This document shows, piece after piece, positions 59,991-61,481 of a stretch of DNA of 64,000 bases. The notes under the pieces are model-generated. The model had not been told where the DNA came from, did no database searches, and saw only the letters and a list, made by a program, of their open reading frames with translations. The stretch's first letter is position 1. Every line of letters begins with the position of its first letter. The stretch lies in contig CAVGNU010000004.1 of the NCBI GenBank assembly GCA_963630775.1, positions 859 through 64,858 of the forward strand, given 5' to 3'. Both the position numbers and the translations under genes were made by a program. The stretch is from Bacteroides fragilis. Its GTDB lineage: Bacteria > Pseudomonadota > Alphaproteobacteria > Rs-D84.

Positions 59991-61481
59991 ATGCTGCACA
60001 CATCGGACTTTGATTTTGAATTACCAACCGAATTGATTGCATCGCACCCATTGGCGCGTCGCGATGCATCCCGTATGCTGGTGGTAAAACATTCCCCTCC
60101 GTTGGAGGGGTGTCGCGAATGCGGCGGGGGGGGCAGAGATTCCGTAAATTACAGAACATTGCCGTTTAACAGCGAATTAAAAGAAAAAGCACGCGCTTTG
60201 CGTCATGCCGGCAGTTTGCCAGAAGCACTGTTGTGGCAAGAAATCAAAAATCATCAACTGAACGGATTGGATTTTGACAGACAGAAAATCATTGGTAATT
60301 ACATTGTTGACTTTTTCTGTGCATCCAAGTTTGTCGTTATAGAAATAGATGACAAGGCAACACATGATTTGAAAGCAGAATCCGATGCCGCACGCGATGA
60401 ATATATGCGTGGTTTGAATCTGACTGTTATACGAATACCAGCGGCGGATGTGTTGAAAGATGCGCATGCGGTTTATCTGTGGCTTTCTAACCACCCCGCC
60501 TTGCAGGCACCCCTCCAACGGAGGGGAACTTGTGTTGATCTGTCGGATCGGCATATTCGGGATTTTTTGGATTATATTCGCCCAGGCGATGTGGTGGTGT
60601 TTAACAATTCGCGTGTGATTCCGGCGCGCTTTGATGCGACCGACACGGCGGGGCACGAATATGAAATCACACTGCACACCGCCGCAGGCGGCAAACTGTG
60701 GTGGGGCCTGTGCAAGAAATTCACGCGCATTGCGGTTGGCGATACATTGAGCATGACCGACGGCACGCAAATCCGCGTGGTGGATTCTGACGCCGACAGT
60801 GGTCTGAAACTGGAATTTTTATGTGATGATGTGTTCGCGGTTCTAAATAAAATCGGCAAAATGCCATTGCCACCGTACATGCATCGTGATCAGGAAGATT
60901 CCGACCGTGAACGGTATCAGACCGTTTATGCGGATCCAATCGGGTCAATGGCGGCCCCAACGGCTGGATTGCACTTTACACCCGAATTGATGGACGAAAT
61001 CGCGCGTCGTGGTGCACAGATTGTCAAGGTTACCCTGCACGTCGGCGCGGGTACATGGATGCCTGTCAAGACCGAGGATTTAACCCAGCACAAAATGCAC
61101 AGTGAATGGTGTCAGATTACGCCCGCACAGGCGGACATTATAAACAATGCAAATCGCGTTATTGCGGTTGGAACGACATCGATGCGTACACTGGAAAGTG
61201 CGGTAATACGCAACCGTGTGTTGCCGGAATCCCAGCGTTGTCGCCGTGTTGTGCCATTTTGCGATACAACCGATATATTTATTACCCCTGGGTACGCGTT
61301 TGGGGCGGTGGACGTGTTGCTGACGAATTTCCATTTGCCAAAATCGACACTGTTTATGTTGGTTTCGGCGTTTGCGGGCCTGAATGAGATGAAGACCGCA
61401 TACGCGCACGCGGTGGCGGAAAAATACAGATTCTTTTCATACGGCGATTGTTGCCTGTTATTCAAAAAGGATGCACAATGA
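59991..61481 (+). CDS. queA: S-adenosylmethionine:tRNA ribosyltransferase-isomerase QueA, interrupted in frame by a DUF559 cassette
   Basis: From ATG 59991 the translation is [32 protein letters not shown]. QueA homology resumes at ~60535 ([31 protein letters not shown] ... [10 protein letters not shown] ... [19 protein letters not shown]). At ~496 aa it is much longer than the ~350 aa typical size. The track start at 59898 overlaps era. Confidence 0.9.
   Translation: [496 protein letters not shown]
60092..60533 (+). mobile_element. TIR-bounded DUF559 (Vsr-like/restriction-endonuclease-fold) cassette inserted in frame in queA
   Basis: Perfect 21-bp inverted repeat: ttcccctccgttggaggggtg (60092-60112) and cacccctccaacggaggggaa (60508-60528). 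The interior encodes [14 protein letters not shown] followed by [59 protein letters not shown]..H...D..[17 protein letters not shown], which is the DUF559 pattern. Exact boundaries are uncertain by a few nt. Confidence 0.72.

Follow-up and report, generated by a model that had tools for sequence, protein, structure and literature searches.

Two kinds of described elements are among those closest to the locus considered here. The first are the Rickettsia palindromic elements (RPEs), which are mentioned in PMC1779305 and PMC2635572. The second are Vsr-like (EDxHD) homing endonucleases, such as I-Bth0305I (PMC3239194), together with the "fractured gene" endonucleases (PMC2677866). EDxHD enzymes are multidomain and separately expressed, and they reside in group I introns, between split-intein halves, or where they break a gene in two. 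In addition, a survey of programmed inversions lists a DUF559 domain-containing protein and restriction-modification methylases among the families enriched for flanking inverted repeats (PMC9881135). In this study, we analyzed a 64,000-nt stretch of contig CAVGNU010000004.1 (assembly GCA_963630775.1; hereafter, the window), deposited as Bacteroides fragilis and placed by GTDB in the alphaproteobacterial lineage Rs-D84. Its queA gene carries an in-frame insert that encodes a DUF559 domain between inverted repeats. Our results make it likely that this insert represents a single copy of a selfish mobile cassette, in which a Vsr-like (DUF559) nuclease gene lies between ~45-bp two-hairpin terminal inverted repeats and is translated through together with its host gene. 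The observations behind this reading are presence/absence polymorphism, residence at multiple sites, ends without an open reading frame (ORF), conserved ends, a younger cassette, and purifying selection.

A DUF559 cassette in frame within queA

According to the ORF list and its translation, queA of the window encodes 496 aa from an ATG at 59991 to a stop at 61481. The same list holds a 527-aa version from an ATG at 59898, overlapping era; we took 59991 as the start because all orthologues begin with MLHTSDF. In a Pfam scan, the ORF matched Queuosine_synth (3.6e-114) in two stretches and DUF559 (PF04480; 3.4e-24) at residues 62-161, and the 148-aa insert alone matched PF04480 at 4.1e-25 and 88.2 bits (cut-off 20.6) over profile positions 2-100 of 109. 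The NCBIfam thresholds for QueA equivalogs were also passed, again with the match in two pieces (NF001140, 411.9 bits against a cut-off of 324; TIGR00113, 351 against 267). Once the insert is removed, QueA matches the B. subtilis protein (PDB 1YY3) at E 9e-82, the other PDB matches being 1VKY and 1WDI. A previous note on this DNA, made from its letters alone (the sequence-only reading), had described a split queA of ~496 aa interrupted in frame by a full DUF559 domain. The ORF, the split Pfam homology, and the open frame agree with this description, and the bit score of the insert substantiates the domain.

The reading frame is uninterrupted through both the left and the right junction, and cassette-bearing queA is 441 nt (147 codons) longer than empty alleles (496 vs 349 aa). 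The insert is bounded by two arms (Table 1) that are complementary without mismatch over 21 nt, within an extended repeat between 60092-60129 and 60491-60528 (38 nt, 82%). Each arm contains a CCCCTCC-N3-GGAGGGG hairpin, a motif with four occurrences in the window and none in 100 shuffles; both the perfect repeat and its hairpins had been noticed before and are present in the sequence. When mapped on orthologues, the insertion point falls between the conserved RMLVV and HIRDF motifs, in a short stretch whose sequence and length both differ from one orthologue to another (GD-Q, DD-K, KS-S, KG-A) and which aligns to VLDKHTGEL of 1YY3. A tblastn search revealed no second DUF559 copy in the 64-kb window, the only matches being to peptides encoded by the ends.

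Between the two ends, the cassette holds only the ~120-aa DUF559 domain, without a start codon of its own for the nuclease core and without a separate DNA-binding domain. Across 29 aligned sequences, the window copy among them, residues D74, E85, D87, and H92 do not vary, and the window copy has all subfamily-invariant residues. A sequence search of the PDB retrieved 3HRL (E 1e-13). The AlphaFold2 (AF2) model of the fusion has a predicted local distance difference test score (pLDDT) of ~90 over residues 50-170, flanked by low-confidence linkers. Foldseek aligned the modeled nuclease with 3HRL (template modeling score, TM, 0.74), with 3R3P, the catalytic domain of I-Bth0305I (TM 0.70, root-mean-square deviation 2.8), and with 1VSR (TM 0.45). 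No transposase of a known class is encoded, as the single ORF of the cassette is DUF559 by Pfam.

The two ends can pair, bringing the flanks together, and Vsr-like nucleases are known within introns and beside split inteins (PMC2677866, PMC3239194). In this sense, the cassette might be removed after transcription or translation, as an intron or intein would be (for instance, if the ends pair in the mRNA and are processed), leaving a normal mature QueA. We consider such removal very improbable. Pfam detected DUF559 and Queuosine_synth in the queA ORF but no Hint or intein domain, and Rfam gave no intron. The junctions lack the residues of inteins (an N-terminal Cys/Ser, and a C-terminal His-Asn followed by Cys/Ser/Thr), and the junction peptides vary among hosts. 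Moreover, an element spliced from RNA would have no need of the open frame that many hosts keep across the two junctions.

Filled, empty, and footprint alleles of queA

Using QueA with the insert removed as the query, we found both filled and empty sites in relatives at 92-94% QueA identity. The nearest orthologues, at 92-93%, are insert-free proteins of 349 aa (alleles P0121 and P0125), alleles P0122-P0124 have 358 aa (P0122 being a footprint allele with the solo hairpin), and a cluster of 400 sequences (P0126) with 94% QueA identity has 496 aa including DUF559. Filled alleles at this N-terminal site (N-site) also occur in more distant relatives: P0209 (534 aa), P0226 (528 aa), and the fetched loci L001 and L002. 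The closest relatives come from human-gut metagenomes and from Candidatus Enterousia-like metagenome-assembled genomes (MAGs), and the human-gut contigs keep the era-queA neighborhood. No record was identical to the QueA protein of the window itself, in either its 496-aa or its 527-aa version. In a DNA alignment, the empty state reads GTGGTC GATGACAAA GAATTATCT, the filled state is represented by the window, L008, and L009, and the footprint state (L004 and L005) has 27 extra nt, a degenerate solo hairpin TTCCCCACCAACAGAGGGAAA read as PIPHQQRET. No target-site duplication is seen when filled and empty sites are compared at queA. A search based on the insert independently gave fusions of the QueA N-terminus with DUF559 at the same position (P0001, P0002, P0003, P0067), whose DNA carries the same ends as the window cassette. 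Related filled queA genes thus carry the segment together with its inverted repeats, not as a repeat-free part of QueA.

Metagenome contigs often break at these repeats, and among our loci L003 begins within a left end and L002 stops a short way past the cassette. The sequence-only reading had raised the possibility of an assembly chimera. In such a chimera, a DUF559 gene would have been joined to queA through the repeated hairpins. However, these junctions recur in assemblies made independently, with different assemblers and from different samples (L008, L009, the P0126 cluster, P0209, P0226, L010, and L011), which excludes a chimera to near certainty.

Cassettes also fill a second site of queA, located in the loop before ...PICQTTDIF, in L010, L011, L042, and L058. 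In L011 (1618-3675; JAZROX010000027.1, a Candidatus Enterousia sp. MAG), queA is intact, encodes 686 aa, and bears a cassette at both sites; the two belong to different lineages and are 62% identical. A third insertion in this gene is a solo end in the ARFDA|YEITLH loop, and all three are in frame. When the cassette cores are placed in a tree, those from the two queA sites intermix: the N-site copy P0001 is 94% identical to L010, at the C-terminal site, and the N-site copy of L011 is 81% identical to L003. Diverged lineages have a cassette at the same queA site, but near-identical cassettes are found at another site of queA as well.

Some features of individual loci deserve mention. In L002 (4170-4245), queA has an extra insertion of ~14 aa (RGSVSEQGASRQSESEDGPSAV) in the ARF..YEIT loop, where L011 has its solo end, so that this loop looks like a third recurrent insertion site. 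In L001 (6655-6690), a 16-bp tandem duplication (GGCGATGTGGTTGTGT twice) just 3' of the cassette shifts the queA frame, reflecting either a real pseudogene or an assembly error. Gene content beside queA differs between filled and unfilled lineages: the M16 peptidase gene or genes between queA and tgt in the window (61448-62752) are likewise found in L008, and tgt comes directly after queA in the empty and footprint relatives L004 and L006 (11051-12190).

Two-hairpin ends conserved as DNA

The ends of the cassette are ~45-bp two-hairpin inverted repeats, composed of an invariant CCCCTCC/GGAGGGG stem and a covarying second stem. In the left end of the window copy, hairpin 1 is CCCCTCC-GTT-GGAGGGG and hairpin 2 is TCGCG-AA-TGCGG, and the inner G-run is degenerate (GGGGGGGG in place of GGGGTGGT). 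The right end is laid out as ACCACCCCG-stem-loop-CACCCCTCC-AAC-GGAGGGGAAC. Folding of single-stranded DNA reproduces both hairpins of the window ends. Across the family, the left end follows the pattern (A)A(A/G)TTCCCCTCC-N3-4-GGAGGGGTG-(stem-loop)-GGGGTGGT, and the right end its reverse complement. A strict regular expression for the end matched 48 left and 43 right ends in the 86 copies; by eye, the others mostly look like slightly degenerate versions, and the majority of the 86 inspected copies have recognizable versions of these flanks.

The second stem has 29 different 5' arms, and a perfect stem of at least 4 bp is present in 93% of the ends vs 6% of shuffles. Covariation was evaluated in 36 aligned ends, where four of the five pairs of this stem have changed on both sides. 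The count of 45 double-change cells was not reached in any of 500 shuffles, and slid controls were far lower. At the same time, stop codons occur in 11% of the frames of the ends vs 23% in shuffles. We built a covariance model of the end (R1) from the ends of relatives in other organisms. When run on the 89 fetched loci, R1 matched 279 times, or about three times for each nuclease gene, and the loci that are empty or have a footprint (L004-L007) had no match. Rfam contains no family matching the ends.

Copies in other genes and other phyla

The relatives scan covered one genome per species, with an alignment of insert relatives as the query. At least 588 genomic stretches encode relatives, with amino acid identities of 49-59%. 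Among the taxa are Alpha-, Beta-, and Gammaproteobacteria, Desulfobacterota, Bacteroidota, Armatimonadota, Cyanobacteria, and Firmicutes, as well as Spirochaetes, Cloacimonadota, Calditrichota, Fibrobacteres, Thermotogae, and others. Searches for a vector of this cross-phylum spread in plasmids, phages, and IMG/VR found none: tblastn of the nuclease core had no match in plasmids (E<=1e-20) or phages (E<=1e-10), and IMG/VR gave a single close relative.

Residence in frame was assessed by extending the DUF559 frame both ways in the 86 copies. About 40 of them lie in frame within long host ORFs, with the same host family on both sides by Pfam and BLAST. The hosts comprise Type I HsdR (17 loci, all at one site before helicase motif I), Type ISP or Eco57I-like enzymes (6 loci, at least two sites), N6_N4 methylases and HsdS (up to 3 loci each), QueA (9 loci), and PriA and LipA (1 locus each). 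Free-standing copies have an ATG a few bases 3' of the left end, and none is found there in copies inside genes. Moreover, the end-encoded peptides SPPLEGW..GVV, FPSSGGV..RGG, and HPAL..PPEEGN/PLQRRG recur as solo insertions in host proteins. The sequence-only reading had proposed a mobile palindromic family inserted in frame. Allele polymorphism, ORF-less ends, and conserved ends support that proposal, but its scope was too narrow, as the ends are actually ~45-bp two-hairpin structures, the family crosses phyla, and residence in frame is common.

It could be argued that the nuclease is a stable domain gain that now serves the cell, with the inverted repeats left as relics or linkers. Purifying selection on the nuclease, the intact fusion ORF in several lineages, and the many copies in restriction-modification enzymes, where an added nuclease could be useful, would fit such a benefit to the host. 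On the other hand, the closest queA orthologues have no insert, the same cassette is shared by housekeeping genes that are unrelated (priA, lipA) and is present at two sites of queA, and it is younger than the gene that hosts it. Besides, conservation of the ends across phyla is at the level of DNA, and they have ORF-less intergenic copies. Altogether, these data make a host-beneficial origin unlikely.

Two arrangements in relatives are worth recording. In a Chitinophagales MAG (L025, 1558-5964), a type I hsdR contains, besides the DUF559 cassette, a GIY-YIG nuclease domain (Pfam 1.9e-12) in frame at a different site and several solo-end peptides in tandem (FPSSGGVAESRGGK...); this gene is a mosaic of selfish insertions in a single open frame. 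Some free-standing DUF559 genes (L053, L064, L065, L070) lack the right end. Genes of this type have a ~120-bp mini-element on their 5' side (left end, ~23 nt, right end) and, on their 3' side, one of two related short genes whose products start with M(K/T)...(F/L)(V/I)(I/L/F)Y(Q/T)(S/T)(E/D)DG.

ORF-less copies in the window

Five ORF-less ends lie in the window, in two intergenic clusters. Outside queA, R1 recovered full 45-nt ends at 49160-49206(-) (E 1.5e-9), 50976-51021(-) (E 1e-10), and 51043-51086(+) (E 6e-16). A split left-type end at ~48896-48984(+) gave a weak cmsearch match at 48900-48974. The ORF-less copies that had been reported from the letters (48942-48984, 49185-49203, 50997-51025, and 51046-51068) are real, as the covariance model finds ends there. 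In the first cluster, the left end of the 48896-49206 element is split by a nested 32-nt palindromic repeat (48910-48941), and tblastn of its interior retrieved end-encoded peptides only, with no DUF559 remnant. In the second cluster, the back-to-back unit folds as a long hairpin (z = -6.2), and the same arrangement with a similar spacer also lies 3' of the cassette in the related queA genes of L001 and L003.

Both clusters contain at least three further palindromic repeat families, GTCATTCCTGC..GCAGGAATAG, TTGTCATTCCGTGGC..CCACGGAATCTAGGT, and GGGCCCCGCAAAAT..TTTTGTGGGTG, at 49098-49122, 50878-50940, 49226-49262, 50814-50850, 48910-48941, and 50892-50923. The last of these families is nested in the loop of a cassette-type hairpin (48910) and in the loop of a first-family repeat (50892), which suggests insertion into hairpin loops. 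Next to a minus-strand tRNA-Arg(ACG), three tandem ~190-bp repeats (51098-51670, 51660-51736; 98% and 87% identical) each have a GGTTCGAACCC-type motif resembling the tRNA T-arm, and they may be remnants of integration sites.

Table 1. Coordinates of the queA cassette, its parts, and the ORF-less elements in the window.
Feature	Position	Strand	Evidence or composition
queA ORF, insert and stop included	59991..61481	+	ORF list, Pfam, NCBIfam, PDB matches
QueA N-terminal segment MLHTSDF...RMLVVK, 5' of cassette	59991..60088	+	nearly invariant in orthologues
Complete DUF559 cassette (both ends plus the nuclease coding region)	60089..60531	+	limits from covariance-model matches
Left terminal inverted repeat, translated	60089..60135	+	cmsearch E 3.9e-10; DNA fold gives two hairpins
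Left arm, perfect 21-bp inverted repeat	60092..60112		sequence
DUF559/Vsr-like PD-(D/E)XK nuclease core RDSVNY...SNHP, 121 aa	60135..60497	+	Pfam, PDB, AF2, Foldseek
Right terminal inverted repeat, translated	60488..60531	-	cmsearch E 1.3e-16; DNA fold
Right arm, perfect 21-bp inverted repeat	60508..60528		sequence
QueA C-terminal segment to stop	60532..61481	+	orthologue alignment; dN/dS 0.06 vs L008
ORF-less intergenic element	48896..49206		left end 48896-48909 + 48942-48984, right end 49160-49206(-)
Back-to-back unit	50976..51086		right-type end 50976-51021(-), ~21-nt spacer, left-type end 51043-51086(+)

Selection, age, and the state of QueA

The ratio of non-synonymous to synonymous divergence (dN/dS) of the nuclease ranges from 0.03 to 0.19 in all comparisons with measurable dS, which indicates purifying selection. 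Between the window and L008, dS is 0.126 in the cassette and 0.583 in the queA flanks (9/78 vs 88/217 synonymous differences, Fisher p = 1.2e-6), with nucleotide identities of ~96% inside the cassette and ~89% outside. The lower dS of the cassette implies that it is younger than the split of its two hosts, or that it was homogenized between them.

The queA flanks of these two filled lineages have a dN/dS of 0.06. This value has a bearing on whether queA might instead be an inactivated pseudogene, intact in look only and in frame by chance or because the insertion is very recent. QueA is dispensable in many bacteria, L001 has the frameshifting 16-bp duplication just 3' of its cassette, and the right hairpin resembles a terminator, all of which would suit inactivation. 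Nevertheless, the low dN/dS of the flanks, the intact filled ORFs (496, 528, 534, and 686 aa) in several diverged lineages, one with three in-frame insertions, and the recurrence of in-frame residence in ~40 host ORFs render a pseudogene improbable. Based on the dN/dS and on the variable insertion point, we favor a tolerated insertion; QueA activity of the fusion is predicted, and QueA probably stays functional in it.

A proposed route of mobility

We propose that the element landed in QueA at a variable turn, between the strands that hold RMLVV and HIRDF. We infer read-through translation because the cassette lacks a start and a stop of its own and its G+C-rich ends are poor in stop codons. 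The product would be a ~55-kDa QueA with an extra nuclease domain on Pro/Gly-rich linkers encoded by the ends. The nuclease may recognize its own hairpin ends or solo hairpins and nick or cut there, and the cassette could then be copied in by repair after the cut, in a homing-like or a transposon-like manner. Loss might proceed by a deletion from one outer hairpin to the other, these two being near-direct repeats at a distance of 416 nt, and would leave a solo-hairpin footprint.

Several points weigh against the reading of the insert as a mobile, translated cassette. A role of the nuclease in mobility is purely what we infer, and we know of no biochemical activity for any DUF559 protein of the cassette subfamily. 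Among the 37 elements compared, there was neither a target-site duplication nor a clear target motif; their flanks are A-rich on the left and T-rich on the right, a bias that may belong to the ends. The footprint allele was ruled out as a simple deletion product of the window-type allele by its size and by the reading frame of its hairpin: the alleles differ by 414 nt, a hairpin-to-hairpin deletion would take 416 nt, and the hairpin is read in another frame, so that the footprint is not a one-step derivative. The 17 hsdR hosts are 72-84% identical across phyla, and hence their copies may travel with the whole gene and not be independent insertions. Constraint on the DNA itself could account in part for the lower synonymous divergence of the cassette. 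In a simple scan, the right hairpin with its U-rich stretch scores as terminator-like. Finally, the QueA part of the AF2 model is poor, since all QueA sequences in its alignment are at least 77% identical, and the geometry of the insertion cannot be read from it.

Beyond the window copy, we tentatively suggest, with confidence a little short of even, that these cassettes form a previously unrecognized class of mobile elements. Its members would encode a minimal Vsr-like nuclease that recognizes its own two-hairpin ends, would spread within and between genomes and across phyla, and would be tolerated as stop-free, translated in-frame domains that are not spliced. They would land recurrently in restriction-modification genes, queA, priA, and lipA, and the ORF-less ends would proliferate as in-frame peptides. 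If this proves true, nuclease-bearing selfish DNA would have a third way, besides introns and inteins, to live in essential or conserved genes, namely by staying in the protein. It would also make sense of the odd "DUF559 / endonuclease domain-containing" annotations, which number in the thousands, and of the end-encoded peptides that recur in many phyla, and it would give DUF559 a testable function. Likewise, it may account for the enrichment of DUF559 among predicted inversion targets (PMC9881135), which agrees with the cassette architecture, although the survey itself does not discuss that architecture. Annotators would be warned that a gene for hsdR, queA, or priA can be a mosaic if it is oversized, and a small nuclease recognizing a defined hairpin pair could have practical interest.

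Comparison with known systems

We found no description of such an element in the full-text literature searched, a coverage that leaves out most subscription journals, so that an earlier description is possible. RPEs share with the queA element the in-frame, tolerated insertion of a palindrome, the additional intergenic copies, and an alphaproteobacterial host. RPEs are short and ORF-free, whereas the queA element has a complete nuclease gene. The present ends also differ in having two hairpins that are conserved across many phyla and in occurring both as cassettes and in ORF-less form. The solo ends in genes of relatives do behave like RPEs, as short ORF-less insertions in frame.

With the EDxHD homing endonucleases, the cassette has in common the nuclease fold, the invasion of conserved genes, including DNA-metabolism genes, and hairpins 5' of the endonuclease ORF. 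Unlike these enzymes, the present ~120-aa domain lacks its own start and stop and is joined in frame to the host protein, with inverted repeats on both sides. The closest solved structure by both sequence and fold, NGO0050 of Neisseria gonorrhoeae (PDB 3HRL), is a free-standing DUF559 protein. Endonuclease-bearing inteins are likewise in-frame intervening sequences with a nuclease domain translated together with the host protein, but the cassette lacks a splicing domain and junction residues, and the insert presumably stays in the mature protein.

As in bacterial MITEs (miniature inverted-repeat transposable elements) and their parent insertion sequences (PMC10969869), there are terminal inverted repeats, ORF-less copies that outnumber ORF-bearing ones, and intergenic clustering. 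Unlike the parents of MITEs, the cassette has no DDE, serine, tyrosine, or HUH transposase, only a PD-(D/E)XK nuclease, and no detectable target-site duplication. G+C-rich hairpins as a feature of the DNA, as well as nested and clustered palindromes, are also known from repetitive extragenic palindromes with their associated tyrosine transposases (REP/RAYT) and from IS200/IS605 (PMC3733652, PMC6006769), whereas the present family has no HUH gene, its ends are inverted rather than on the same strand, and its hairpin sequence is another. In sum, the cassette is akin to two known kinds, in-frame palindromic elements and Vsr-like selfish nucleases, with a substantial chance that it represents a distinct class of mobile element.

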